Assembly: GCA_035531115.1 (NCBI GenBank)
Contig: DATKTP010000242.1
Span: forward strand, 1 to 10,876
Direction: 5' to 3'
DNA length: 10,876 nucleotides
Origin: Candidatus Deferrimicrobium sp.
GTDB taxonomy: Archaea > Asgardarchaeota > Lokiarchaeia > Helarchaeales > HEL-GB-A
The notes beneath the pieces are model-generated. The model was given only the letters and a program-made list of their open reading frames with translations. It had not been told where the DNA came from and searched no databases. Shown here one piece after another: positions 1 through 10,876 of the stretch (the first letter of the stretch is position 1; the number at the start of each line of letters is the position of its first letter). Position numbers and translations under genes: made by a program.

Positions 1-926
1 AAACTATCACTTATAACCTCCATTCTATTAATTAGTATTGTGAAATGGAATTTACCAGCTGAGATATCTTCTAATGAAATTTCATAAACTCTTTGATATT
101 CTTCACTTTCCCAACTATATTCTGTTTTATTAGAATAAATGAAATTTATTCTAATCTTTTGAAATGTTTTTGAATTCGAGAGAGTAATTTTAAAAATAGT
201 TTTTTCAAACGAATAATCAATAATATAAGTTCTCTTTCTATAAAATGCATCAGGATTTAATTCTAATTTGTCTAATAATTCCGAATCCTCACAGATTTTC
301 TTTGCATAATTTAATTCTGCAGGAGATCGAACAAGAATTTTCTCTATATATTTTAATTCGATTTTTTGGAAAATATCTACCTCAGCTTGTACAATAAGAC
401 ACATTTTTTTATATTCGTCATCATCCATAGAAATATATCTACCTTCTATCATTTTTCGCCTCCACAAATCGAAGTATTTCCATTCAATCTCCTCAAATGT
501 TTTTAAAATATCTTCAAAACTGGCAGATTTTGAAGACGTGAAATGAGCAGTCGTACTCCATATATTTTCGTTTAATAATATTTTTGGATTAATACACAAG
601 TAGATAGGAATGATTTTATGTTTGTCTAATTCATTATTCTTTATACCTTCTGTTTTATGAACCATTGGTGTCTTTATTGTGTAATATAGAGGTACATACT
701 CATCCTTATTTTTACCCTTTCTTTTATCAATCAAACTTGCTTCTGAGCCATTCTTAAATGTGATTTTATCCTCACCTATTAGTTTTCTTGAAAGAATAGC
801 TTTGGATCTTATGATTCCTTTTAAATTTTGAAGTGTGGTATAATGGATTAGATGAGAAATTCGTTGTTTCTCTAAAATTGCTTTAATTTTTATCCATTTT
901 AATTTTAAATTTGATAATATAAACAC
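1..926 (-). CDS. DarT-like (DUF4433-type) ADP-ribosyltransferase domain protein with an additional C-terminal region; 3' end runs off the window
   Basis: Not in the supplied track. Hand translation of the minus strand gives one stop-free frame from 926 to 1 (308 codons): (start)FILSNLKLKWIKIKAILEKQRISHLIHYTTLQNLKGIIRSKAILSRK...DEYVPLYYTIKTPMVH...WSTTAHFTSSKSASF...KKMCLIVQAEVDIFQKIELKYIEKILVRS... These match the three hallmark DarT/DUF4433 blocks: H-x-T-x3-NL..I...G.L; YVPFYF..x.PM; QAE-x-hydrophobic...I..I.V. More than 100 further residues (beta-rich, unrecognised) follow. The start is uncertain. The first canonical in-frame start is GTG at 926. An ATG at 930 with AGGG about 8 nt upstream is in another frame and stops after 15 codons. 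Confidence 0.7.
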   Translation of the reverse strand, partial: MFILSNLKLKWIKIKAILEKQRISHLIHYTTLQNLKGIIRSKAILSRKLIGEDKITFKNGSEASLIDKRKGKNKDEYVPLYYTIKTPMVHKTEGIKNNELDKHKIIPIYLCINPKILLNENIWSTTAHFTSSKSASFEDILKTFEEIEWKYFDLWRRKMIEGRYISMDDDEYKKMCLIVQAEVDIFQKIELKYIEKILVRSPAELNYAKKICEDSELLDKLELNPDAFYRKRTYIIDYSFEKTIFKITLSNSKTFQKIRINFIYSNKTEYSWESEEYQRVYEISLEDISAGKFHFTILINRMEVISDS

Positions 927-987
927 CCATTATTTTTCCCTATCTATTTCAAATACAAATACTATTAAAAATATGCTTGAAATGTAT

Positions 988-995
988 AAAAAAAA
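988..995 (-). terminator. Oligo-T (T8) tract on the minus strand; candidate archaeal-type terminator for the upstream operon
   Basis: A8 on the plus strand equals T8 on the transcribed minus strand. It lies 77 nt downstream of the AbrB-like stop codon and about 60 nt upstream of the DarT-like start. Archaeal RNAP terminates at oligo-T tracts. Not validated. Confidence 0.3.
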
Positions 996-1071
996 TTTAT
1001 CATAAGAGATTATTAATTTCTTGAAAATTTTTAAGAAGAAACGCCCATTATTACCAGATTAATATAATTTT

Positions 1072-1260
1072 TTATTCTAGGACCTTTTCAATGATAAGCT
1101 TATCGTCTTCAATCCTTATCGAAACATAAGTACCCTCTTGTACCTTAAATTCATTGGCAATCTTACTTGGGAGGACTACCGCAAGACTATTACTTATTTT
1201 AAAGACTTTCCTGACTTCACGATTCGCTGACAATTTGAATTCCTTCTTCTGCCATATCAC
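1072..1260 (-). CDS. AbrB/SpoVT (MazE-like) family DNA-binding protein
   Basis: 62-aa ORF. SNSLAVVLPSKIANEFKVQEGTYVSIRIEDDKLIIEKV fits the SpoVT-AbrB swapped-hairpin pattern (h-h-h-P-x-x-h...G-x-x-V-x-h...h-h-h-x-K). The start is either GTG 1260 (44-nt overlap with the upstream gene) or TTG 1233 (17-nt overlap, AAGGA about 7 nt upstream). Confidence 0.75.
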   Translation of the reverse strand: MIWQKKEFKLSANREVRKVFKISNSLAVVLPSKIANEFKVQEGTYVSIRIEDDKLIIEKVLE

Positions 1261-3070
1261 TTAACCCTGTGACAATGACATACTCGGTAACATCTTTGAT
1301 GTAATTTTTAATTATTTCGAATCTGGAGGGGTCATAGCTGGTAATGACTTCATCAATCACGAAGAAGGGAAAGGTGGGAACGAATTCTTCTTTCGCGGCT
1401 ACGAGGACTATTAAGGCAAGGGTGATGCGTTCGCTGGTGGATAACGCTTCAAACGGCCATTTATCAATGATCTTCCCCGCTTTTATCCTAGTAATAGAAA
1501 TCCTTCCATCCGTTTTAAGTTCTATATCTTTAAAATCCTTAAATTGCAATTCTTCGTAAATCTCATTGGCTCTTCGCTCAAATCTTTTGCATACAGAATC
1601 AATTAATTCGTCTTTCCTGATTGCAAGGTGCGAAATTAACCCTTCAATGAACCTGATCCGTTTTGTTAGCGCATCAGCGTCTTTGGTTTTTCCTCGCAGG
1701 GCTTCAATGTTTTCCTCATCCGAGATCGTTCTCTGCTTCAAGATTTCAATATTATTAATCAACTTTTCGCGTTTTTGCCACGTTTCAAATGTAGCTTTTT
1801 CTGAAAATTGGAAGAGCTTCTCTATTTCTGCTTCATACTTAGTTTGTTCTTGTTCCAATTCGGCTATTTCAGTTCTAAGTTTGTTCTTATCAAGCTCTCG
1901 ATTTTGAAGTGTGCTAGTTGTTTTGCGAAGATCAGTTTCAACTATGCTCAATTGCCTTTGTGATTTCTCTAGTTCGGTTTTTTTTCGCCCTAAATCTTCT
2001 ATCTCTCTAGTTTTTTGAACGATTTTATTCCCTAAGTCACTACTAGCTTTTTCATTTTTTCGTTGCCAATCTTGTAAATCTTTTAATGAAAGCGTCTTAC
2101 CACAGGCATAACATTGTGTTCCACCAGGAGCTAAGTCACCGTGTCGTTTAATCTTAACCCAATTATCATTTGCCGATTTAATTGCAGCTTGACACTTTGT
2201 ATTCTCGGTTTCCAGGGCTTTCAACTCTTGGTTGGTGTTGTTGGTGCTTTTCACAACTTTTTCAATTTCTTTTTCGATTAATGGATAATCAGCTTTTATT
2301 TCATCGACCAATTCTTGCTTGGTTTTGATTTGTTCCGCTAAAGCTTTAATTTGATCTTCTAAACTATCGAAATTCCCTTTCTTCTTCCGCAATTTGTCGT
2401 CTATTGCTCTCTTTTCTCCTATTTTTTCGTGGTACTTGTTCCTCATTTGTTGATCCGCTAACGCGTCTGTTTCATCCACTTGTGGTACGGTTTCAAGCTC
2501 TTTTTCCAATTCTGCAATTTCGTTTCTGCTCTTAAGCAATCGATCTTGTGTCATTTCCAATTGAGTTAAATCATCTCTGAAAATTTGGTGCTGTCTCAAG
2601 TAGTTTTTTTTCATTTTGTCTAAAGAGGAAGTAATAACATCAAAGAGATTACTATCAGAGATATTTTCAATAAAAGTCCTAATAGGTTTGCCCCGAAGTA
2701 TCTGATTTATGAGATCGTTATCGGGCGTTGCAAAACTGGTTAATTGCGCTTTATTCCCTGCTTCTAATGAAACATTTCCTTCAAAGCTGTAGAGATCGTT
2801 TCCAGCGCGTCTAAACCGTTTGTTCCAATCTATATTTTGGTTTGTCAATGAAATTTCGATAGTATCGTGCGCCCCTGTAAATAAATTCATTAAGAATCCT
2901 TTATTTTTTAAGTCAGGGTCATCCATTGTGAATAATTCTAACGCATTTATCAAACTCGTTTTTCCCGTAGCATTGGGAGCTTTAACTACATTCAACCCTT
3001 TATCAAATTCAAAAATTTCTTTATTGGCAAAAATACCGACATTTTCCACTTCTAACTTCAATTTACTCAT
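1217..3070 (-). CDS. Rad50/SMC-like ABC ATPase with long coiled coil and central CxxC zinc-hook-like motif
   Basis: 617 aa. The N-terminal head carries Walker A (VVKAPNATGKTSLINALE). About 400 aa are heptad-like, K/E/Q-rich coiled coil, interrupted at mid-length by GGTQCYACGKTLSLKDL (compare Rad50 hook C-P-x-C-G-R-x-L). The C-terminal head carries a signature-like LSTSERITLALIVLVA and Walker B FFVIDEV, then YVIVTGLSD where Rad50 has the His-switch (V-S-H-D). The start ATG overlaps the upstream stop (ATGA). Confidence 0.9.
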   Translation of the reverse strand: MSKLKLEVENVGIFANKEIFEFDKGLNVVKAPNATGKTSLINALELFTMDDPDLKNKGFLMNLFTGAHDTIEISLTNQNIDWNKRFRRAGNDLYSFEGNVSLEAGNKAQLTSFATPDNDLINQILRGKPIRTFIENISDSNLFDVITSSLDKMKKNYLRQHQIFRDDLTQLEMTQDRLLKSRNEIAELEKELETVPQVDETDALADQQMRNKYHEKIGEKRAIDDKLRKKKGNFDSLEDQIKALAEQIKTKQELVDEIKADYPLIEKEIEKVVKSTNNTNQELKALETENTKCQAAIKSANDNWVKIKRHGDLAPGGTQCYACGKTLSLKDLQDWQRKNEKASSDLGNKIVQKTREIEDLGRKKTELEKSQRQLSIVETDLRKTTSTLQNRELDKNKLRTEIAELEQEQTKYEAEIEKLFQFSEKATFETWQKREKLINNIEILKQRTISDEENIEALRGKTKDADALTKRIRFIEGLISHLAIRKDELIDSVCKRFERRANEIYEELQFKDFKDIELKTDGRISITRIKAGKIIDKWPFEALSTSERITLALIVLVAAKEEFVPTFPFFVIDEVITSYDPSRFEIIKNYIKDVTEYVIVTGLSDMAEEGIQIVSES

Positions 3071-3267
3071 GGTTCATCCCACCCATCCGCATATTTGTTG
3101 AGAATTTCCAACACTTTATCTTCGGCCACGTTGGGGAGGTGACCCGATTTTATTTTGTGTTGCTTGACGATTGAGAAGATTTCTCTCTCACACTCAACGA
3201 ACACGTCAGCTCCAGATTTCGAGCTTCCTGTAATATTTTCCTTGACTTTGGTTTTTCTTCTAGACAT
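3067..3267 (-). CDS. Small hypothetical protein (66 aa), translationally coupled to the Rad50/SMC-like gene
   Basis: ATG at 3267 is preceded by GGAGGT 6 nt upstream. The stop TGA overlaps the ATG of the next gene (ATGA at 3067-3070). No recognisable domain. Confidence 0.6.
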   Translation of the reverse strand: MSRRKTKVKENITGSSKSGADVFVECEREIFSIVKQHKIKSGHLPNVAEDKVLEILNKYADGWDEP

Positions 3268-3527
3268 CTACTAACCTCCAAAACTTTTTCAGGTATATCC
3301 CATTCGTGTAAAGGTTCAGCTACGAAAATATCTAAACCCTCATCGAATCTTTTCCTTAAACTCCATAACATCGCTAAAATTTCGCCATTTGATTCAGTTA
3401 AAAATACATCTGAACTTAATTTTTCGATAAAAAACTTATTTATATCTTGACGTCGTTTATCTTGATGCCAGCTCCAAATTATATCTTTAACTGTTGTATT
3501 TCTTATTTTTATTATTAAAAAGGTCAT
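3150..3527 (-). CDS. Hypothetical protein; 3' end uncertain (out-of-frame overlap with the 3067-3267 ORF)
   Basis: The track ORF 3150-3542 starts at TTG. I prefer the in-frame ATG at 3527 (MTFLIIKIRNTTVKDIIWSWHQDKRRQ...). The last roughly 39 codons overlap the next ORF in another frame and end in a low-complexity tail (SSQSSSNTK). The true stop may therefore differ, or there may be a frameshift. No recognisable domain. Confidence 0.45.
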   Translation of the reverse strand: MTFLIIKIRNTTVKDIIWSWHQDKRRQDINKFFIEKLSSDVFLTESNGEILAMLWSLRKRFDEGLDIFVAEPLHEWDIPEKVLEVSRCLEEKPKSRKILQEARNLELTCSLSVREKSSQSSSNTK

Positions 3528-3543
3528 AAAAAACCATCTCAAA

Positions 3544-3568
3544 AAATGTCGTCACAGTGACGACATTT
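3544..3568 (-). terminator. Perfect 12-bp-arm palindrome (hairpin) followed by a T-tract inside the operon; possible attenuator/terminator or protein-binding palindrome
   Basis: Plus strand is aaatgtcgtcac-a-gtgacgacattt. On the minus strand the hairpin begins at the last base of the AAA+ stop codon and runs into TTTTTT (rc of 3541-3546), then GAGATGG and the next start. Confidence 0.4.
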
Positions 3569-4278
3569 CACAATTCTTTTGACAGGATCGTGTCAATGTA
3601 TTGCTCGGTAATCAGTTTTTCAATCTCCCTAATTGTTTTGAAATCGCCCTTATCAATTTGCGATATCATTTGATCCGCATCCATCTGCAACTGTTTACAT
3701 TTGTTTTCAGCAATAATTTTGAGAGTTTCTTTAGTAGGAAAGGGAAATTCGATAGGATACAATCTGTCTTTAACTGCTTTATCTATTAATTCAAATCGAT
3801 TCGTCGTTAAAATAACTGAAATCTTAGATGTATCTACATTATCTAGGCAATGGAAGAATACGTTATTTTGAGCGATGTGCCACGATTCCCCCTTGATCCA
3901 ATCTCTTGTCGGAAAGACTGACTCACAATCATCTATGATAATAATCACGCGACCATAATTTTCTGCTTTCTTAAAAATTTCCGCTATCTGCCTCTCCGAT
4001 TCACCATAAAGAGATCGGGCAATATCTGAACCATCCACAAAAATGTAGGTAAAATTCAGAACATTGGCAAGAACTTTCGCTATGGTGGTTTTCCCGGTTC
4101 CCACCTCACCAAAAAAAATAAATCCTTTAATACCGTCCTTGATTTTGTATTTTTGTTGATAGTAAATAATCTTCTGGACTTTTTCGAGAATCGCAAGATA
4201 TTCTTGTCCAAAAACGGTATTTTTGGAGTAAGGATTATCTATCGGTTTTATGATGTTCAACTCTTCTTTTTTCTGCAT
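3568..4278 (-). CDS. Minimal classical-clade AAA+ ATPase (single AAA module, no recognisable N-terminal substrate domain)
   Basis: 236 aa. Motifs: Walker A GEVGTGKTT; pore-loop-1-like SLYGESERQI (compare K-aromatic-V-G-E-S-E-K of Vps4/FtsH/proteasomal ATPases); Walker B IIIIDDCES; sensor-1 ILTTN; SRH-like NRFELIDKAVKDR; C-terminal helical lid. GAGG lies in the 13-nt spacer upstream. Confidence 0.9.
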   Translation of the reverse strand: MQKKEELNIIKPIDNPYSKNTVFGQEYLAILEKVQKIIYYQQKYKIKDGIKGFIFFGEVGTGKTTIAKVLANVLNFTYIFVDGSDIARSLYGESERQIAEIFKKAENYGRVIIIIDDCESVFPTRDWIKGESWHIAQNNVFFHCLDNVDTSKISVILTTNRFELIDKAVKDRLYPIEFPFPTKETLKIIAENKCKQLQMDADQMISQIDKGDFKTIREIEKLITEQYIDTILSKEL

Positions 4279-4291
4279 TTAATACCGCCTC

Positions 4292-5149
4292 TTAATTTGT
4301 AGATCTTTTCTGTTGTCGAGATTGCTGTCTTGCGCGCATACGAATTAAGGCGCGTTCGTTCCATAATTGGATGAAATTCTGAACGTGTGGTGAAAAAATA
4401 ATTTTATTTCCATCTTTCTTAACTATCATTCTGATATCGGCATCTTTTACATTATTTCGCTCGATTGCCGTCGAGAAGCGATAGTAGGGGAAGCCCCGGT
4501 GAGTAAACTCGGCTCTAAGGTCTTCCAATAAGAGCTCGCCACCGTTATTTGAGGCAATTAAAATGCCAAAAATTAGGGGAATAAGTGCACTGATTCCTTT
4601 TTTTTCGATTCCAAGAGCAATCATCTTTCCCAGTGCGCTACCGAAGATTTCGTGTTCGATCCCTTTCGCTTGAATTTGGTCAAGGAAGTTATCCCAAATG
4701 GGGGTGAGTCGAACAAAAGCGGAAAACGGAGAATCACCTTTATTGTGGATAATTTCGAGAAATCCGTAATCTTTTAATGTTAACAATTTTTCAAAGATTT
4801 TTTTCAAGCTCCCGCATGCAGATCGGATAGTCATTATTGAAATCTTACCTTCCTCCGCTTTTTTTATCCGATCTTCAATTTCCCCGACTCTACCTGTCCT
4901 TTCGTATTGTATTCGATTTGTATCAAGATCGGCTCTAAGGGATTTTGCCTCAAATCGCTTTTTCAAGGTTAATATAAAGATAGTATTAATGATATTTTCA
5001 ATAGTTTGTAAGAGGGTGTATTCAGTATAACTGCTTAGTGATTGAACTCCAAACAATAGATTTATATTTTGAGTCTCTAGCAACTCTTTGATTATTGTGG
5101 CCAAGACTTCAACGAAATCTTGGTTTTCAGGGACATCCAAACCATCCAT
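4292..5149 (-). CDS. Uncharacterised protein, paralog B of the 5408-6214 product
   Basis: 285 aa, alignable end to end with the 268-aa product of 5408-6214. Shared blocks: LQTIENIIN, ERTG, SAC, L(S/T)PIW, GKMIALGIEKKGI, (P)(F/Y)xRF, ER-x-N, D(I/L)RMI. Basic C-terminal tail RMRARQQSRQQKRSTN. The start ATG is 2 nt after the histone stop, with GAGGAGAG immediately upstream. Confidence 0.85.
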   Translation of the reverse strand: MDGLDVPENQDFVEVLATIIKELLETQNINLLFGVQSLSSYTEYTLLQTIENIINTIFILTLKKRFEAKSLRADLDTNRIQYERTGRVGEIEDRIKKAEEGKISIMTIRSACGSLKKIFEKLLTLKDYGFLEIIHNKGDSPFSAFVRLTPIWDNFLDQIQAKGIEHEIFGSALGKMIALGIEKKGISALIPLIFGILIASNNGGELLLEDLRAEFTHRGFPYYRFSTAIERNNVKDADIRMIVKKDGNKIIFSPHVQNFIQLWNERALIRMRARQQSRQQKRSTN

Positions 5150-5151
5150 TA

Positions 5152-5388
5152 TTATCTCTCCTCTGGTTCAAGGGTGTACTTAAAAATTTCCTTTACCGCA
5201 TCTCGCACATCGGTATCGCGAATGTTTGTTCGACCAGATAAGTTTGCTAATTTCACAGCTTCACCGGCGATCATCTCTGCATGCTCCGTTAGAACATCTA
5301 AAAACAGCTTTTTTGCTTCTTTTGAGACCTGTTTTGCGCCGCTATTTTTTAAAATTCTATTAACCGCCGCTATACTAAAGTAACTCAT
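5152..5388 (-). CDS. Archaeal histone-fold protein (HMfA/B-like) with short acidic C-terminal extension
   Basis: MSYFSIAAVNRILKNSGAKQVSKEAKKLFLDVLTEHAEMIAGEAVKLANLSGRTNIRDTDVRDAVKEIFKYTLEPEER aligns without gaps to HMfB as I recall it ([66 protein letters not shown]). The track start is TTG 5391. I prefer ATG 5388, which has GAGGT 7 nt upstream. Confidence 0.9.
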   Translation of the reverse strand: MSYFSIAAVNRILKNSGAKQVSKEAKKLFLDVLTEHAEMIAGEAVKLANLSGRTNIRDTDVRDAVKEIFKYTLEPEER

Positions 5389-5407
5389 CAATAAAACCTC
5401 GCTTTTA

Positions 5408-6214
5408 TTAATATCCTAATTGGCGTAAACGCTTCTGAACTCTCTTATACCATTGATAGACTGCGACTGTTGAATGTTTCGCAAAGTAAACACGTTCCTC
5501 TGTTTTTGAGGGGATCATACGAAGGTCGGGATGTTTTTCGTTATCACGTTCAAGGACGCTGGCAAATCGGTGAAATGGAATGCCCTGTTCAACGTATAAC
5601 TCTTGAAACTCGCCATGTGATATCCAACCATCATCAAATGCCCTTTTCAAACTGAGGATGAGGGGTTTCAACGGTTTAATCCCCTTTTTCTCAATGCCCA
5701 ATGCGATCATCTTCCCAATTGCGCTACTGAAAATGTCGTGTTCATACCCCTGATTATGAATGTGATCAATCGTCCCATTCCAGATGGGAGATAATTGTAC
5801 AGTTGCAGAACCACCAGGAGTCTTTTCGATGATGATGAATTTTTCCTCGTGTAACTTATTCAGTTTCGCTTCAACGTCGGATAAGCCCGTGCAAGCACTG
5901 ATTAGATTGGATAAAAATATTTTGCGAGCCTCTACCCGTGCAAGCTTTTGCTGATACAGTTCTAATTGTCCCGTTCGTTCGAGTTCTTCTTTATTAGCAT
6001 CGATGTATTTGGTGAGACGGGTTTTCTCGTCAATGAGGTGGATATTTTGGTCGAAAAGTACATTAATAATGTTTTCAATGGTCTGAAGCGGCGACCAGAT
6101 TGTAAAACAGCTCAAAGATTGAATTCCCCTTAGTAATTCATAGTTCCCCTTTTCTAAACCCTCCCGAATTAACGGAAGTAACTCTTTAATGTAATGTTCC
6201 CAAACTGTACTCAT
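5408..6214 (-). CDS. Uncharacterised protein, paralog A (first gene of the operon)
   Basis: 268 aa. Shares the conserved blocks listed for 4292-5149. Basic C-terminal tail WYKRVQKRLRQLGY. AGGGGA lies about 6-8 nt upstream of the ATG. A long AT-rich non-coding region lies upstream. Confidence 0.85.
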   Translation of the reverse strand: MSTVWEHYIKELLPLIREGLEKGNYELLRGIQSLSCFTIWSPLQTIENIINVLFDQNIHLIDEKTRLTKYIDANKEELERTGQLELYQQKLARVEARKIFLSNLISACTGLSDVEAKLNKLHEEKFIIIEKTPGGSATVQLSPIWNGTIDHIHNQGYEHDIFSSAIGKMIALGIEKKGIKPLKPLILSLKRAFDDGWISHGEFQELYVEQGIPFHRFASVLERDNEKHPDLRMIPSKTEERVYFAKHSTVAVYQWYKRVQKRLRQLGY

Positions 6215-6489
6215 ACTTATCCCCTAAATTTTTCATAAAGAACATAAAATTTACCTATGAAGGTTATGGAGTTTATGTATATTGCATATATTTCTTATAT
6301 GATTTTATGTTTAACCTCGAATTATTTTTATCTTTTTAGTTATAGGTAGTAGTATATTCTATTTTAGAAAATTTAAATATTTCTTTTGTTTAAAGGAATA
6401 GAATGTTTAAATTATTCTAATAATTATAATAGATTCTGAATAAATATTCCTAAAAAAATTTTATAAACATAACTAGTTTAGAAAGTCGA

Positions 6490-6496
6490 TTATATA
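6490..6496 (+). promoter_or_regulatory. TATA-box-like element (TTATATA) positioned for a leaderless plus-strand transcript
   Basis: It is centred about 27 nt upstream of the ATG at 6520, which opens a 32-codon ORF (MTIKEINENLIWKGKPYIRIPSIIGLVYEVTI, 6520-6618). A purine-rich BRE-like stretch (gaaag) lies just upstream. It is divergent from the operon. The region is very AT-rich, so chance TATA-like strings are common. Confidence 0.25.
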
Positions 6497-7149
6497 CGCT
6501 ATGTGGCTATGGACATAGAATGACCATAAAAGAAATTAATGAGAACCTAATTTGGAAAGGAAAACCTTATATTCGGATCCCTTCAATTATTGGGTTGGTT
6601 TATGAAGTTACCATCTGATGAAAATCTTTATTTTGAACTTGAAAAATTACCGAAGTGTATTGACCTGAAATAAGAATTTCCAATTGTTGTTAATTTGAAA
6701 TGCAAAATATAACTTAAAGAAAAGCGTATTGGAGCTATATTTATCGAAAGATTCATACGTTCAACATAGAAAAATCGATATTTGGCAGTAACTTGAGTGA
6801 CTCTTTTATAAATTGCATTAACTTCTTTTCTAAAATATCGAGATATTCGAGGATATTCTTTTTATAAGGCAATATTGGAATTATTATTTCATTCGGACCG
6901 ATTTCGTTCAATTCTTTATCTAATGGTATCGATGAATCCAAATTTCCAAAAAGTGTGTTATAATGGACAATAATATCCCTTATTCTGATTGCTTCTTGAA
7001 TCCATTGCGTGATATTATTTTTAATGAGATCTATAAGCTTAAATCTGTTTATATAAAGAATATTTTGAATTCTTCGATATTTCTAAAGTATTTTTTAAAT
7101 AAAAGTTGTTTTCTAGTAAAAAGTTGTTTTTTTCCCAAATAATTATTGT

Positions 7150-7971
7150 TTAACTAGATTTTTCTCGTTTTTGAATAATCTCAAAGTGCCGTGCCACTTG
7201 ATCATAATCGCTTTTATAGATATGGAGACTATTGCTGAAATCCACGTATTGGATGAATTCGAGGTTCAAACTGCTTGATAACCATCTCCCAAACTCAGTA
7301 AAACCCAAAATATTAGCCCCAACGGCTTTGTACAAATCGCGGCTCCTCCATGTTGTCTCTAGAACCATATATTTATTTTCTATAATCCGAATCCAGAGTC
7401 TTTGTAAACATGGAGCACCAGAAATAATTAAATCTTTATATGGCGCCCAAGTAGTTACCTGCAATTTACGACTAATTGGTTCTTCTTTCGCTTTTTCAAT
7501 GAGCATTTCTATTTGATTAATACCTTCATCTGCCTTGAACTCTTTTTCGGTAATTCCATCAAAGATTTTGATGGTGGGTCTCTTCTTTTGTTTCAAGAGT
7601 TCTGCATGTTTGGGCTGCACCAAGCCCCATGAAAACAGCCTCTCATGGTACGTGTATGATTCTACGCCCTCTAAAACCCGGTGATCCATATCTCCATCAA
7701 TCAAATCCCGCACATATTGTTTTTCGCGGTAGGGCTTTTTTTTATCTGGACCGGTCACAAACATGGAAACACTGACAAAATCTTTCCGGGAGAAACGGGG
7801 TTCTTGCAAAGGATTCATGACATTAACTAACACGGAAGCTTCTTTGCTTAATTCATCGGAATAATGCTGTTCAATCTCAATACCTTTGTACCAAACCGCT
7901 TCCACGGCTTTTTCCCAAGCCTCGCCACAAGTTTCAGCCTCAACAAAGAGGATAGGTAAATGGGGTATCAT
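7150..7971 (-). CDS. thyA: Thymidylate synthase, ThyA family (divergent archaeal type)
   Basis: Alignable by eye to E. coli ThyA core motifs: [10 protein letters not shown] ~ [33 protein letters not shown] ~ [34 protein letters not shown] ~ LAPCHAFFQF (catalytic Cys); [13 protein letters not shown] ~ QRSCDVFLGLPFN; NSLHIY ~ DTHLY. The track start is TTG 7980. I prefer ATG 7971, which has GAGGT 10 nt upstream. Confidence 0.85.
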   Translation of the reverse strand: [273 protein letters not shown]

Positions 7972-8208
7972 TTTCTTCAAGACCTCATCCTAGGAGTTAT
8001 GAATCTACGGGAATGAAGGATCTATAAAAATTTTATTCTCATATTAGAAGAAAAATTGCAGAAAAATTGGAATTTTATCGGTGGCTGTTTCCCTTTTCCC
8101 CCTTTTCTTCAAAGAATTTTTATTTTAATAAAGTAAAGTTTTAAAGAAGTGATAAGAATGAAACCAAATGAAGACTCGTTATAGAAAACATTTATTCACG
8201 TGGATTGA

Positions 8209-8217
8209 AATTATAAC
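8209..8217 (+). promoter_or_regulatory. TATA-box-like element upstream of tRNA-Arg
   Basis: aattataac is centred about 30 nt upstream of the mature tRNA 5' end at 8244. AT-rich context, so low specificity. Confidence 0.3.
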
Positions 8218-8243
8218 AATAGATTTAAAAAATCAAACGTAAT

Positions 8244-8338
8244 GGGCCCATAGCGTAGTTGGATAACGCGCAGGCCTTCGGACCATTCGATGGGAAGAGA
8301 GCCTGAGGTCCAGGGTCCGAATCCCTGTGGGCCCGCCA
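8244..8338 (+). tRNA. tRNA-Arg (anticodon TCG) with canonical-position intron; CCA encoded
   Basis: Hand fold: acceptor GGGCCCA/TGGGCCC; D arm GCGT-AGTTGGATA-ACGC; anticodon stem CAGGC/GCCTG with loop C-T-TCG-G | 18-nt intron (8282-8299) | A; variable AGGTC; T arm CAGGG-TCCGAAT-CCCTG; discriminator G; then CCA. Confidence 0.9.
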
Positions 8339-8542
8339 ATTTTATAATTTATTTTTTGCTGAAAAACCCAGAAATTTATTCTTATTATTATGAATTTCAT
8401 AAGCGCGTTTGTTAAATCGAAAATCATCCTTTTTTAATTGATTTTATGCAGAAATTTTAAATAGAATTTCACATTTCCCTTACCAAGGACAGTCTTAAAA
8501 AACAAGTCCGCTATAGCTAGGAAAATATAAGAACGCAATAGT

Positions 8543-8740
8543 CCCTGGGTAGTTCAGTTTGGTAGAACGTCGGGCTGTAGAGATAAGTACCGCATAATTG
8601 AGATGGGATCGCGTCCCGCCTAGGATATTATGTCAGTAGCAGCGACCCGGTAAGATGGGCTTTCGGGATAGGAACCCGAATGTCGCTGGTTCAAAAGGGT
8701 TGGAAGTGGAATTCCTCCCCTGAAATTCCGGCCCCAGGGA
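8543..8740 (+). tRNA. tRNA-Tyr (anticodon GTA) with two introns (about 93 nt at 37/38 and about 31 nt in the T-loop)
   Basis: Exons give CCCTGGG TA GTTC-AGTTTGGTA-GAAC G TCGGG-CTGTAG[8581-8673]A-CCCGA ATGTC GCTGG-TTCAAA[8696-8726]T-CCGGC CCCAGGG A. The C1:G72 pair plus A73 is the archaeal Tyr identity set. The spliced sequence closely parallels M. jannaschii tRNA-Tyr as I remember it. Splice junctions are ambiguous by 1 nt. BHB motifs not verified. Confidence 0.85.
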
Positions 8741-8877
8741 CTTCTTCCTAATTCTCCTTGGTAGGGGGATTTCATACTTTATACGGGTCAATTATAATTC
8801 ATTATAAAATTAATAAGTCCCCCTATCTATACGAAATATTAAAAAATAGATGTAAATTAATTATACGAGAACGAAGG

Positions 8878-8885
8878 TATATTTA
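8878..8885 (+). promoter_or_regulatory. TATA-box-like element upstream of the tRNA-Asp/tRNA-Lys pair
   Basis: TATATTTA is flanked by GG on both sides and centred about 24 nt upstream of the tRNA-Asp 5' end. tRNA-Lys follows 25 nt after tRNA-Asp, consistent with co-transcription. Confidence 0.3.
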
Positions 8886-8904
8886 GGCAATCATTATAGA
8901 AAAA

Positions 8905-9013
8905 GCCTCGATAGTGTAGTCCGGCGATCATCTGGGACTGTCACTCCCAGGACTGACGAAAACGCCGTTTTGGTCAGTGGGATACCCGGGTCCAAATCCC
9001 GGTCGGGGCGCCA
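8905..9013 (+). tRNA. tRNA-Asp (anticodon GTC) with a non-canonical intron in the variable-loop region; CCA encoded
   Basis: Acceptor GCCTCGA/TCGGGGC (one G-U). D arm GTGT-AGTCCGGCGA-TCAT, the weak D stem typical of Asp tRNAs. Anticodon arm TGGGA-CTGTCAC-TCCCA. Then 36 nt (8950-8985) where 4-5 are expected, containing the hairpin ACTGAC-G-AAAAC-gcc-GTTTT-G-GTCAGT. T arm CCGGG-TCCAAAT-CCCGG. Discriminator G, then CCA. Confidence 0.8.
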
Positions 9014-9038
9014 CTTCTATTCTGAAGAGGTTATTTGT

Positions 9039-9132
9039 GGGCTCGTAGCTCAGCTAGGCAGAGCGTCGGGCTTTTAAATCAGAAATTGATAAAGAAACCC
9101 GATGGTCGCGGGTTCAATTCCCGTCGAGCCCG
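9039..9132 (+). tRNA. tRNA-Lys (anticodon TTT) with canonical-position intron
   Basis: Acceptor GGGCTCG/CGAGCCC; D arm GCTC-AGCTAGGCA-GAGC; anticodon stem TCGGG/CCCGA with loop C-T-TTT-A | 20-nt intron (9077-9096) | A; variable TGGTC; T arm GCGGG-TTCAATT-CCCGT; discriminator G. No encoded CCA. Confidence 0.9.
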
Positions 9133-9520
9133 TCATCCTTACCTATTTGCCAATATTAACTTTTCTATTCCCTATTTTATAATTGGAGCATTTTTATTCG
9201 AATATTAATCATAAACCTCGGTTTACGTCCTAATTAAGGTTGAATTATAAAAAAGTAACGCAAATAACTCAAGAAGAAAGGTAAGAAGCAGATTCAAATA
9301 TTTCGCTATAACTTTAAAAGTTGCAAGAAATTCGAAGAATTTATAAGGAAAATAATTTTTTATAATGAAGAAATACCTATCTAATTCCTTTTTAATAGAA
9401 ATTTAAAAATAACAGAAATTCTTTAATTAGAGAAAATTATGAGGTCTGAGAAGCAATATTGCTTAATAATTTATTATTTTATCTAATCAGAAACCTGTTT
9501 GGCTATAGTGGTGTATCCAA

Positions 9521-10876
9521 ATGACGAGTAGTAATGAAAATTTAAAGTTAGATAATTGGGTTTTAATGGGCGCTTTCTTTAAAGAAAAAGGGTTGGTGCG
9601 CCAACATTTAGATTCATATAATGTATTTATTGAAAAGACAATCCAAGAAGTAGTTGATGAAACTGCGCGAATTGAACCCGATATCCCCCAGTACTTCGTG
9701 AAGCTCGGGCGAATCAATATAGGTGATCCCACGATACGGGAAGCAGATGGATCTGTTAAACCCATATTCCCCATCGAAGCCCGTATCCGCAATTTGACAT
9801 ATTCGGCGCCCCTGTATTTAGAAATGATCCCGATTCGTAAAGATGAACGGACCGGAATTGAAATCGAAGGGGAAGTAGTAAACGTCTATATTGGTCGACT
9901 TCCAATCATGCTTCGGTCCAATGTCTGTCTTTTGAAAGATATGAGTGATGAGGAATTAATTAAACATGGAGAGGATCCCTTGGACCCGGGTGGTTATTTC
10001 ATAATAAATGGGTCTGAGCGGGTTCTTGTTACGCGCGAAGATTTAGCACCCAATAGGATATTGAGTGAGGAAGCAAGTAAAAGTTTATCTGCGAGTTATG
10101 TAGGAAAAGTTTTTTCAACTTCACACGGGTTTAGAGCCCCAGTTACGCTGGAGCAGCGTAATGATGGGACCCTTCGAATATCATTTCCCTCAGTTCCAGG
10201 AAAAATTCCTTTCGCGATTTTAGTTCGAGCGCTTGGTTTAGTGACGGATAAAGAAATTAGTGATGCAATTTCAGATGATCCACTTGTTAGGCGCCAGTTA
10301 ATAGCTACATTAGAGGCCGCTGCGCCCATTTATATCCCAAAGGATGCGCAAGGTACCATCGATAATGCGTTAGACTATATTGGAAAGCGAGTTGCGGTAG
10401 GGCAGACAAGGGAATATCGATTACGGCGAGCTGGTCAAGTTTTAGATAGATACCTACTTCCCCACATTGGCAGAACCAATGCAGATCGATTAAAAAAAGC
10501 GTATTATCTTGGACAGATGGCCCAGCGTATCGTAGAATTACAGATTAATAAGCGTATTCCAGATGATAAAGATCATTATGCAAATAAACGACTGAAATTA
10601 GCTGGAGATCTTCTTACCAGCCTATTCCGTGTCGCTTTTCTTAATCTTACTAGAGATATCAAATATCAACTCGAACGAACAGCCGTCAGAGGGCGGGCGC
10701 CAAATATTAAAACAGCAGTCCGCGCAGATGTCGTTACAGAACGATTACGCCATGCTTTAGCAACGGGCAATTGGGTAGGAGGTAAAGCAGGGGTCAGTCA
10801 ATTACTTGATCGGACTAATTATATTTCTGCTTTAAGTCATCTTCGTAGAGTCGTTTCTCCTCTTAGCCGAAGCCAG
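9521..10876 (+). CDS. rpoB: DNA-directed RNA polymerase subunit B (Rpo2), N-terminal 452 codons; continues beyond the window
   Basis: Not in the track because it runs off the right edge. Hand translation from ATG 9521: MTSSNENLKLDNWVLMGAFFKEKGLVRQHLDSYNVFIEK...EARIRNLTYSAPLYLEM...GEDPLDPGGYFIINGSERVLVTREDLAPNR...DDKDHYANKRLKLAGDLLTSLFRVAF...ATGNWVGGKAGVSQLLDRTNYISALSHLRRVVSPLSRSQ. These are signature blocks of archaeal/eukaryotic second-largest RNAP subunits. GGTG lies about 9 nt upstream of the ATG. Confidence 0.95.
   Translation, partial: MTSSNENLKLDNWVLMGAFFKEKGLVRQHLDSYNVFIEKTIQEVVDETARIEPDIPQYFVKLGRINIGDPTIREADGSVKPIFPIEARIRNLTYSAPLYLEMIPIRKDERTGIEIEGEVVNVYIGRLPIMLRSNVCLLKDMSDEELIKHGEDPLDPGGYFIINGSERVLVTREDLAPNRILSEEASKSLSASYVGKVFSTSHGFRAPVTLEQRNDGTLRISFPSVPGKIPFAILVRALGLVTDKEISDAISDDPLVRRQLIATLEAAAPIYIPKDAQGTIDNALDYIGKRVAVGQTREYRLRRAGQVLDRYLLPHIGRTNADRLKKAYYLGQMAQRIVELQINKRIPDDKDHYANKRLKLAGDLLTSLFRVAFLNLTRDIKYQLERTAVRGRAPNIKTAVRADVVTERLRHALATGNWVGGKAGVSQLLDRTNYISALSHLRRVVSPLSRSQ

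Follow-up and report, generated by a model that had tools for sequence, protein, structure and literature searches.

Do eight tightly spaced archaeal genes that bring together a histone and an SMC-like ATPase make up one system, and if so, what might that system do? The question is raised by a contig of 10,876 nt (GenBank DATKTP010000242.1, positions 1 to 10,876; its full length is hereafter called the window) from a metagenome-assembled genome (MAG) deposited as Candidatus Deferrimicrobium sp. Its minus strand encodes, in the order of reading, a protein of a rare family (paralog A), a histone-fold protein, a second copy of that family (paralog B), an AAA+ ATPase, two small proteins (s1 and s2), an SMC-like ATPase, and an AbrB-like protein (Table 1). 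A first-pass annotation, made from the sequence alone, had read these genes as a candidate undescribed system, and the list of open reading frames (ORFs) together with a reading of the strand placed all eight ORFs, their spacers, and their overlaps where it had put them. The spacers measure 19 nt between paralog A and the histone gene, 2 nt between the histone gene and paralog B, 13 nt between paralog B and the AAA+ gene, and 40 nt between the AAA+ gene and s1. The AbrB-like gene overlaps the 3′ end of the SMC-like ATPase gene, and most starts in the eight-gene set are preceded by GAGG/GGAGG-type motifs.

Conservation of the module and identity of its SMC-like ATPase

A single metagenome scan and exact look-ups supplied further loci, all ORFs of which were compared with the window proteins. 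An orthologous AAA+ gene lay beside a paralog-family gene in 13 of 13 independent loci. The 11 loci that were long enough all carried the SMC-like ATPase as well (25–40% identity), ten of them together with s1, and s2 could be located in nine, ending at the start of the ATPase gene. Gene order and overlaps were largely kept, with a shuffled order in L014. Across loci, identities fell to about 20–25% for the paralog family and reached up to ~60% for the AAA+ ATPase, and the GC content of the loci ranged from 27 to 43%, which marks them as independent lineages. Hosts include an Asgard archaeon (window) and a Hydrothermarchaeota archaeon (L012, assigned by RpoB''). Given the presence of the AAA+ gene in 13 of 13 loci and of the SMC-like ATPase in 11 of 11, the cluster is a real, conserved, and tightly coupled module. 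The paralog family, the AAA+ ATPase, s1, s2, and the SMC-like ATPase recur as a set in the independent loci of sufficient length, so that a chance assembly confined to one genome, which the first-pass annotation had still allowed for, does not apply.

The SMC-like ATPase could be assigned to a described family. It matched the NCBIfam model NF045487 (archaea-specific SMC-related protein, ASRP) with an E-value of 1.1e-86 over model positions 1–592 of 593; the score of 291.8 bits lies 8 bits under the curated cut-off of 300, and far above that of any other family. Other matches were weaker (Rad50 hidden Markov model (HMM), 6e-10; Rad50 in the PDB, 3e-4; LmuB in PADLOC, 3e-16), and Pfam AAA_23 and SMC_N also matched the 617-aa protein. 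Walker A (APNAxGKTS), the signature motif (LSTSER), and Walker B (FFVIDE) were conserved in 11 cluster-linked orthologs, and the CxxC zinc hook in the middle of the coiled coil (C320/C323) was invariant in 11 of 11. Pfam matched no SMC hinge in the protein; the zinc hook occupies that place. In tblastn searches, the window protein aligned over its full length with annotated haloarchaeal ASRPs at 22–24% identity. The ASRP family, which includes ClsN/coalescin of Sulfolobus, Sph1/2 of Halobacterium, and Sph3 of Haloferax, is characterized by protein size, an N-terminal Walker A, a C-terminal Walker B, and a CxxC zinc hook (Yoshinaga et al. 2022, PMC9389158). The window ATPase shares this size, Walker A/B placement, and hook in addition to the end-to-end match to the family model, and judged by sequence it very probably belongs to the ASRP (ClsN/Sph) family. 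The zinc hook and the Rad50/SMC-like head had been recognized at first sight; the assignment to a described family is a correction.

It is known that ClsN organizes chromosome compartments (PMC9389158) and that the rod shape of Haloferax requires Sph3 and RdfA (PMC10869688), and a survey of ASRPs found no consensus among their flanking genes (PMC9389158). Every ASRP gene of the loci L017–L019 (Methanohalobium and haloarchaeal plasmids) adjoined rdfA, which confirms a second, different ASRP partner set. Whereas Sph-type ASRPs are paired with RdfA, no RdfA-family gene adjoins the window ASRP, and RdfA is missing from the window cluster as a whole. Furthermore, hhalign comparisons led us to reject RdfA as an equivalent of the paralog family (probability 0.1) and of s1 and s2 combined (probability 0.3 for RdfA against s1). 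The cluster-linked ASRPs also differ from ClsN in having a fixed set of partners, as ClsN has none known. Since the published survey lacks a flanking consensus and RdfA is found elsewhere and is unrelated, the cluster provides one ASRP sub-group with a separate set of partners.

Searches of other collections yielded little. A genome-contig scan with the ASRP returned only a distant SMC-like gene of a Clostridia MAG (L001), and no isolate carrying the cluster was identified. Phage and plasmid collections held no ortholog of the paralogs or of the AAA+ ATPase, only distant AAA proteins and RdfA-linked ASRPs. Scans of IMG/VR with the AAA+ ATPase, two paralogs of the mobile genetic element type, and an ASRP alignment gave a single truncated remnant (L023). 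At positions 9818–10795 of this locus, the C-terminal half of a cluster-type AAA+ ATPase (57%) is fused to unrelated sequence and accompanied by an s1 fragment, which looks like a decayed remnant of the cluster.

Partner proteins and their genes

Paralogs A and B share 38% identity (E-value 1e-56) and are true paralogs, as had been proposed; however, a pair is not the rule, as most loci carry one such gene and only the window (A-histone-B) and L010 (in tandem) carry two. In a rough neighbor-joining tree, the duplications in the window and L010 were independent of each other, which suggests that duplication arose at least twice, and two independent duplications fit a protein that acts as a dimer. 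The family is rare: an exhaustive profile search of 1.84 billion representatives found 49 cluster representatives of ~260–310 aa. Among its members, P0001 is an ortholog of paralog B (E-value 1e-110), and a protein identical to paralog B is present on six metagenome contigs. Neither paralog had a match in Pfam, NCBIfam, PADLOC, PHROG, or PDB sequences. A word-indexed protein search returned nothing for paralog A and one distant member for a 31-sequence profile, the database apparently being devoid of the family. The paralogs thus constitute an uncharacterized rare protein family.

Based on 31 family members, an AlphaFold2 (AF2) model of paralog A reached a predicted local distance difference test (pLDDT) score of 93.8 and a predicted template modeling (pTM) score of 0.90. 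From the N- to the C-terminus, the model shows a helical part, a pair of winged-helix units, and a long basic helix. In the PDB and BFVD, Foldseek found no match for it at E ≤ 1e-3, only local winged-helix likenesses to MarR/ArsR, cullin, MAGE (probability 0.21), ESCRT-II, and MukBEF (0.11). The near-invariant residues of the family are G, L, L, W, and G, so that the protein resembles a scaffold or an adaptor more than an enzyme; neither this family nor s1 has conserved polar residues of a catalytic type.

The AAA+ ATPase adjoins every paralog-family gene, and its orthologs are 45–61% identical. It scored 84 bits against PF00004 (cut-off 21.2) and forms a single classical module that lacks an N-terminal domain, with VAT (E-value 6e-36), Cdc48, and p97 as the best relatives in the PDB. 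Walker A, the sensor-1 Asn, and the arginine finger are present, and a pore-loop YG and an 'IDDxES' motif are invariant among the orthologs. In 9 of 9 orthologs, Walker B has Asp in place of the catalytic Glu of classical AAA proteins; in the window protein (residues 113–120, IIIIDDCES), an invariant Glu follows two residues beyond the Asp. Common to the window protein and to Cdc48/p97/VAT are the AAA module, the aromatic-Gly of pore loop 1, and the region of the sensors and the arginine finger. In contrast to these relatives and to TRIP13/IetA, the window protein comprises only one module in 236 aa, lacks an N-domain, carries the Walker B Asp, and has a family-specific segment of its own ('FPTRDWxKxESWHxAQNNVFFH').

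The histone had been taken for a dedicated subunit of the set. Its presence in the window is clear, with 39.6 bits (cut-off 21.4; E-value 6.5e-10) against PF00808 and 56.6 bits (cut-off 50; 2.6e-15) against NF043032. The slot of the first gene holds a histone fold in seven loci (window, L002, L009, L010, L015, L020, and L021); the L010 version is a doublet, and those of L002 and L021 have tails. In L012, however, the slot is taken by a ParB_N protein of 375 aa with a DGQHR-like motif, in L008 and L024 by a small winged helix-turn-helix (wHTH) protein, and in L014, L022, and L025 by nothing recognizable. The histone is therefore a frequent but not a defining subunit, and it is not universal. 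The window histone is 38% identical to HMfB, and several DNA-contact and tetramer residues differ. The key DNA-contact and dimer–dimer residues of HMfB are R10, R19, K53, T54, H49, and D59. In an alignment to HMfB, the window histone keeps R10, R52, and D59, while its residues at positions 19, 53, 54, and 49 are Q, T, N, and L, respectively; the other cluster-linked histones, aligned in the same way, also vary at the key sites. The arrangement resembles the RdgC/IHF histone operons (Schwab et al. 2024, PMC11390915), where the histone gene likewise stands first or early in a conserved multi-gene operon; however, the partners there are RdgC-like or IHF-like, and that study mentions no SMC-linked histone operon. 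Nucleosomal histones are single-gene (PMC11390915), whereas the window histone is operon-encoded.

At the other end of the cluster, the AbrB-like protein scored 42.8 bits against PF04014 (cut-off 24.7). An AbrB-type gene directly follows the ASRP gene in six loci (window, L002, L010, L015, L021, and L022), and AbrB or ribbon-helix-helix (RHH) regulators are found 3′ of ASRP. The AbrB-like protein is likely the operon regulator.

The two small proteins had no match to a known family. Orthologs of s1, 27–41% identical, occupy the same position in nine other loci, and their near-invariant residues are L and P. Similarity to PDB entries or to RdfA was not detected for s1; DUF7855 was matched weakly by two of eight orthologs, and a single-sequence AF2 model (pLDDT 46.6) was too poor for a fold search. 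We also considered DndE as a candidate identity and rejected it, as none of eight s1 orthologs matched the Pfam DndE model. Alignment of the orthologs shows that the N-terminus of s2 is basic and that its core of two helices is conserved. The s1 and s2 genes overlap by 118 nt in the window and by 91–118 nt across six loci (window, L002, L010, L015, L020, and L021). In these six, s2 lies in the −1 frame and has its own Shine–Dalgarno (SD) motif inside conserved s1 codons; the window s2 ATG is preceded by GGAGG at 8 nt. We considered and rejected a fusion of s1 and s2 by programmed −1 frameshifting, since each s2 has an SD motif and an ATG and no slippery heptamer is shared, and the overlap accordingly looks like dual coding.

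In the window, the spacer between the AAA+ gene and s1 contains a perfect hairpin of 10–12 bp followed by a U-run (z-score −2.7). Spacers of more than 30 nt at this position in other loci also contain a perfect hairpin, with a stem of 8–11 bp, a loop of 3–4 nt, and z-scores of −2.4 to −4.1. The sequence of the hairpin differs from locus to locus while its structure is conserved, and a clear U-run is found in the window version only. The hairpin is missing where the AAA+ and s1 genes abut; the two halves of the cluster abut or overlap without it in L012, L022, L024, and L025. It may be an attenuator, an RNA processing site, or an operator. A scan for sigma-70 promoters and terminators found fewer sites than in shuffled sequences and is uninformative for an archaeon.

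A literature search, with the 2020 ABC-ATPase classification (Krishnan et al.) outside its reach, found no published description of the cluster. As far as we found, it is above all the fixed combination that is undescribed, along with the paralog family, s1, and s2, whereas the ASRP, histone, AAA+, and AbrB folds are already known. Within the SMC superfamily, no branch is understood less well than the ASRPs, with phenotypes known only for ClsN (compartments) and Sph3 (cell shape). The cluster provides one ASRP sub-group with a defined parts list, comprising a new protein family, a minimal Cdc48-like AAA+ ATPase, two micro-proteins, and an exchangeable putative DNA anchor, and, in an Asgard archaeon, it directly connects a histone-fold protein with an SMC-like motor.

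Possible functions of the module

We tentatively favor the reading that the cluster encodes one multi-subunit, ATP-driven DNA-organizing machine built around the ASRP, although we give it slightly less than an even chance. The two ATPases are the sole enzymes of the cluster, and the other members have DNA-binding folds or are small, non-catalytic proteins. From the conservation of the genes, we infer that their products would form one ASRP-based complex on DNA. In such a complex, ASRP dimers joined at their CxxC hooks would bridge or entrap DNA through ATP-controlled engagement of the heads, and s1 and s2 would bind the ASRP head or neck, with s2 translationally coupled to ASRP. The two-winged-helix protein would act as a dimer, i.e., a homodimer where there is a single gene and an A/B heterodimer in the window, and would serve both as a KITE/kleisin-like accessory subunit and as an adaptor for the AAA+ ATPase. 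The exchangeable upstream subunit (a histone-fold dimer in the window; at other loci, ParB_N or a small wHTH protein) would anchor the complex to DNA, and a Cdc48/VAT-like AAA+ hexamer devoid of N-domains would remodel, load, unload, or reset it. Expression would be controlled by autoregulation of the operon through the AbrB-type protein and by the hairpin between the AAA+ gene and s1, which would set the ratio of the two operon halves. The target would be the replicon that carries the module, be it a chromosome or a mobile element, and the result its compaction, tethering, or segregation.

The alternation of histone, ParB_N, and wHTH proteins in one slot, the winged helices of the paralogs, and the AbrB/RHH regulators lean towards DNA organization, as do the core-genome settings of the window, L010, L012, and L015. 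An AAA+ ATPase of the classical clade with a pore-loop YG would fit a protein remodeler. Several points weigh against this reading. Rarity and patchiness (49 in 1.84 billion) are more typical of accessory or defense genes than of core chromosome machinery, and defense-related or mobile neighbors are present at several loci (window, L020, L022, L014, and L025). The likeness of the paralogs to KITE or kleisin subunits is architectural only, with no Foldseek match at the threshold given above, and the D-D of the AAA+ Walker B may mean a slow or switch-like ATPase. Finally, an ASRP need not act on DNA, since haloarchaeal ASRPs act in cell shape together with RdfA (PMC10869688).

Compared to the SMC-kleisin-KITE complexes (Smc-ScpAB, MukBEF, JetABC, and Smc5/6-Nse1/3/4), the cluster likewise combines a coiled-coil ABC ATPase with small, presumably head-associated subunits, its tandem winged-helix protein is single or paired in an echo of KITE homo- and heterodimers, and one locus (L012) has a ParB-type protein reminiscent of a DNA-loading partner. 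However, the ASRP has a zinc hook instead of a hinge and a coiled coil of about half the length, the AAA+ ATPase and the histone have no counterpart in those complexes, a JetD nuclease is lacking, and neither sequence nor significant fold matches to ScpA, ScpB, MukE, MukF, JetA, or JetB were obtained. This agrees with the first-pass annotation, which had recognized none of the usual SMC partners: Pfam, NCBIfam, and PADLOC scans of the products detected no Mre11/SbcD, ScpA/ScpB, MukE/MukF, Jet, or LmuA/LmuC protein.

A narrower version of the DNA-organizing machine, which we regard as improbable, gives the histone the central part in Asgard and other archaea: its dimer would be the anchor or loader of the ASRP machine on DNA, the AAA+ ATPase, recruited by the winged-helix adaptor, would extract or reset the complex, and the whole could possibly serve as a xenogeneic silencer of unchromatinized DNA. 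If true, this would be a prokaryotic chromatin-coupled SMC system of which mobile elements would carry their own versions, with a logic comparable to the restriction of episomes by eukaryotic Smc5/6 and to Cdc48-driven extraction from chromatin.

The main alternative is an anti-virus or anti-plasmid conflict system, which we consider possible but on the whole unlikely. Here, the ASRP with s1 and s2 would sense foreign DNA by its ends, its topology, or its unchromatinized state, in the manner of the LmuB protein of Lamassu, of Wadjet JetC, or of the CxC ABC-ATPase paired with DndE; the winged-helix protein, together with the histone, ParB, or wHTH protein, would silence or sequester the DNA, and the AAA+ ATPase would act as a switch or reset, like TRIP13 in CBASS. 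A conflict system would be in line with the rare and patchy distribution, with the copies on virus- or plasmid-like contigs, and with the swapping of the DNA-binding subunit, which is typical of such systems. Its proponents could also point to the neighboring genes, i.e., DarT in the window, BglII/HNH in L020, integrase, methyltransferase, transposases, and HerA-NurA in L022, and an rve and a PAPS-reductase/DndC-like gene beside the DGQHR-type ParB protein in L012. Moreover, there were weak PADLOC matches to LmuB (3e-16), PbeC (2e-7), IetA (1e-15), and TRIP13 (7e-14), and a zinc-hook ABC-ATPase with a small partner and a small disordered protein resembles the CxC-DndE layout (PMC10853773).

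The similarity to Lamassu and CxC-DndE (PbeABCD) extends to an SMC/Rad50-like ATPase that is of medium size, has a short coiled coil and, in the CxC clade, a zinc hook, and is accompanied by small partners. However, the cluster lacks an LmuA-type effector, LmuC, and the HKD-helicase PbeA, s1 is not detectably DndE, and the ASRP match is ~70 orders of magnitude stronger than the LmuB and PbeC matches. PADLOC matched no full system and gave matches at the level of generic ATPases only, as the first-pass annotation had expected of a set outside the known defense systems. No nuclease, protease, NADase, or membrane effector was found at any locus examined, the modules in L010, L012, and L015 are embedded among housekeeping genes, and the AAA+ ATPase, ~60% identical across phyla, evolves unusually slowly for a defense gene. 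Should the cluster nevertheless be a defense system, it would be of an effector-less, chromatin-based type that has not yet been described.

A complex for DNA repair or end tethering, in which the ASRP would work like a Rad50 without Mre11, the histone and winged-helix proteins would hold the DNA, and the AAA+ ATPase would clear the ends, is a good deal less probable still. The zinc hook and the Rad50-like head (HMM 6e-10, PDB 3e-4) would suit it, but the ASRP match of 1e-86 far exceeds any match to Rad50. The HerA/NurA-like genes directly after the cluster in L022 would suit it too, but this adjacency was seen at one locus only, and no Mre11/SbcD, Metallophos, or other nuclease domain was present in any cluster examined.

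Even less credit can be given to a cytoskeletal or cell-shape function like that of haloarchaeal Sph3-RdfA, as also proposed for Arcadin-4, with the DNA-binding proteins being mere regulators. Sph3 and RdfA are needed for Haloferax rods (PMC10869688) and plasmid ASRPs pair with rdfA, but RdfA is missing from the cluster and unrelated to the paralogs and s1 by the hhalign probabilities given above, three DNA-binding folds alternate as the tightly coupled first gene, and the cluster is also present on virus- or plasmid-like elements. That the cluster merely juxtaposes two unrelated modules (histone-paralog-AAA+ and s1-s2-ASRP-AbrB) is hardly credible: a terminator-like hairpin with a U-run separates the halves in the window and similar hairpins do so in five other loci, but both halves are present in all 11 loci of sufficient length, including those without a hairpin (L012, L022, L024, and L025) and the shuffled L014, and no locus was seen with one half alone.

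If the products do form one complex, as in the DNA-organizing machine that we favor, the cluster would offer an entry to the loading and removal of archaeal SMC-like proteins on chromatin and a compact system for biochemistry.

Genomic settings and feature coordinates

The coordinates of the window features are collected in Table 1, together with those of the hairpins between the AAA+ gene and s1 in five other loci.

Table 1. Features of the window and positions of the corresponding hairpins in other loci (the latter numbered within their own loci).
Feature	Position	Strand	Remarks
Paralog A	5408-6214	-	268 aa; ORF list
Histone-fold gene	5152-5388	-	78 aa; ATG start, TTG one codon upstream at 5391
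Paralog B	4292-5149	-	285 aa; second copy of the two-winged-helix family
AAA+ ATPase	3568-4278	-	236 aa; Cdc48/VAT-like; PF00004 1.7e-23
Hairpin and U-run in the AAA+/s1 spacer	3541-3568	-	strand reading and folding z-score
s1	3150-3527	-	125 aa; orthologs at the same position elsewhere
s2	3067-3267	-	66 aa; overlaps s1; ATGA overlap with the ASRP start
ASRP-family SMC-like ATPase	1217-3070	-	617 aa; NF045487
AbrB/MazE-type (SpoVT-AbrB fold) gene	1072-1260	-	PF04014 5.1e-11; TTG at 1233 as alternative start
AT-rich non-coding gap, putative promoter region	6215-7149	.	935 nt; GC content, short ORFs only
DarT	3-926	-	PF14487 4e-23; runs off the contig end
Thymidylate-synthase-like gene	7150-7980	-	methanogen-type model, 117 bits against a cut-off of 174
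Three tRNA genes	8244-8335, 8905-9010, 9039-9132	+	Rfam
RNA polymerase subunit B'' (RpoB'') fragment	9521-10876	+	family match
AAA+/s1 hairpin in L002	2082-2115		
AAA+/s1 hairpin in L010	12381-12429		
AAA+/s1 hairpin in L015	11519-11584		
AAA+/s1 hairpin in L020	7127-7197		
AAA+/s1 hairpin in L021	9574-9620		

Upstream of the cluster, the gap has a GC content of 0.24–0.29, compared to 0.35–0.43 in the genes, contains short ORFs only, and is presumed to be the promoter region of the cluster. The window is a complete metagenome contig (ENA ERZ27256847, k141_779732). A GenBank MAG protein labeled 'Candidatus Deferrimicrobium sp.', i.e., a bacterium, matches the RpoB'' fragment at 100% identity. 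The next-best relatives of the fragment (67–74%) come from Promethearchaeota, Sifarchaeia, Heimdall-, Thor-, Frey-, and Odinarchaeota; as RpoB'' is otherwise closest to Asgard archaea, the host is an Asgard archaeon in what appears to be a mis-binned MAG. The context of the cluster had at first been described as accessory. DarT, the AT-rich gap, and the tRNA genes are indeed there, but the setting is not simply accessory, since the thymidylate-synthase-like gene and RpoB'' flank the cluster and mark a chromosomal setting.

Housekeeping genes also surround the cluster on contigs of 94–570 kb in L010, L012, and L015. Other copies reside on virus- or plasmid-like contigs with PrimPol or PolB (L014 and L025), beside BglII/HNH (L020), or in the vicinity of a methyltransferase, an integrase, and transposases (L022). 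In L022, HerA-like (DUF87) and NurA-like genes (10057–12795) directly follow the ASRP-AbrB pair. In L012, the ParB_N protein (8870–9997) carries the motif 'TEGQHRWKA' (DGQHR/DndB-like), and a gene for a 567-aa protein of the PAPS-reductase family (13858–15561; DndC-like?) converges on the 3′ end of the ASRP gene, with an rve gene also present; these neighbors possibly link the cluster to DNA-modification systems. The opposite strand of L010 (1–6003) carries, about 4 kb upstream of the cluster, a canonical SMC gene together with ScpB, so that this host has both systems; the SMC product is unusually long at 1476 aa. In L024, divergent Orc1/Cdc6 and HTH_3 genes are located just upstream (3313–5517), and this cluster may lie near a replication origin or within a mobile element.

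Some further features of the window were noted. The gene for DarT, a thymidine ADP-ribosyltransferase acting on single-stranded DNA, follows the AbrB-like gene after 145 nt, and the window shows no DarG. The thymidylate-synthase-like protein is ~50 residues longer than the methanogen-type model. The three tRNA genes, 92–106 nt long, presumably contain introns; ARAGORN reported one of them, with an odd anticodon call.

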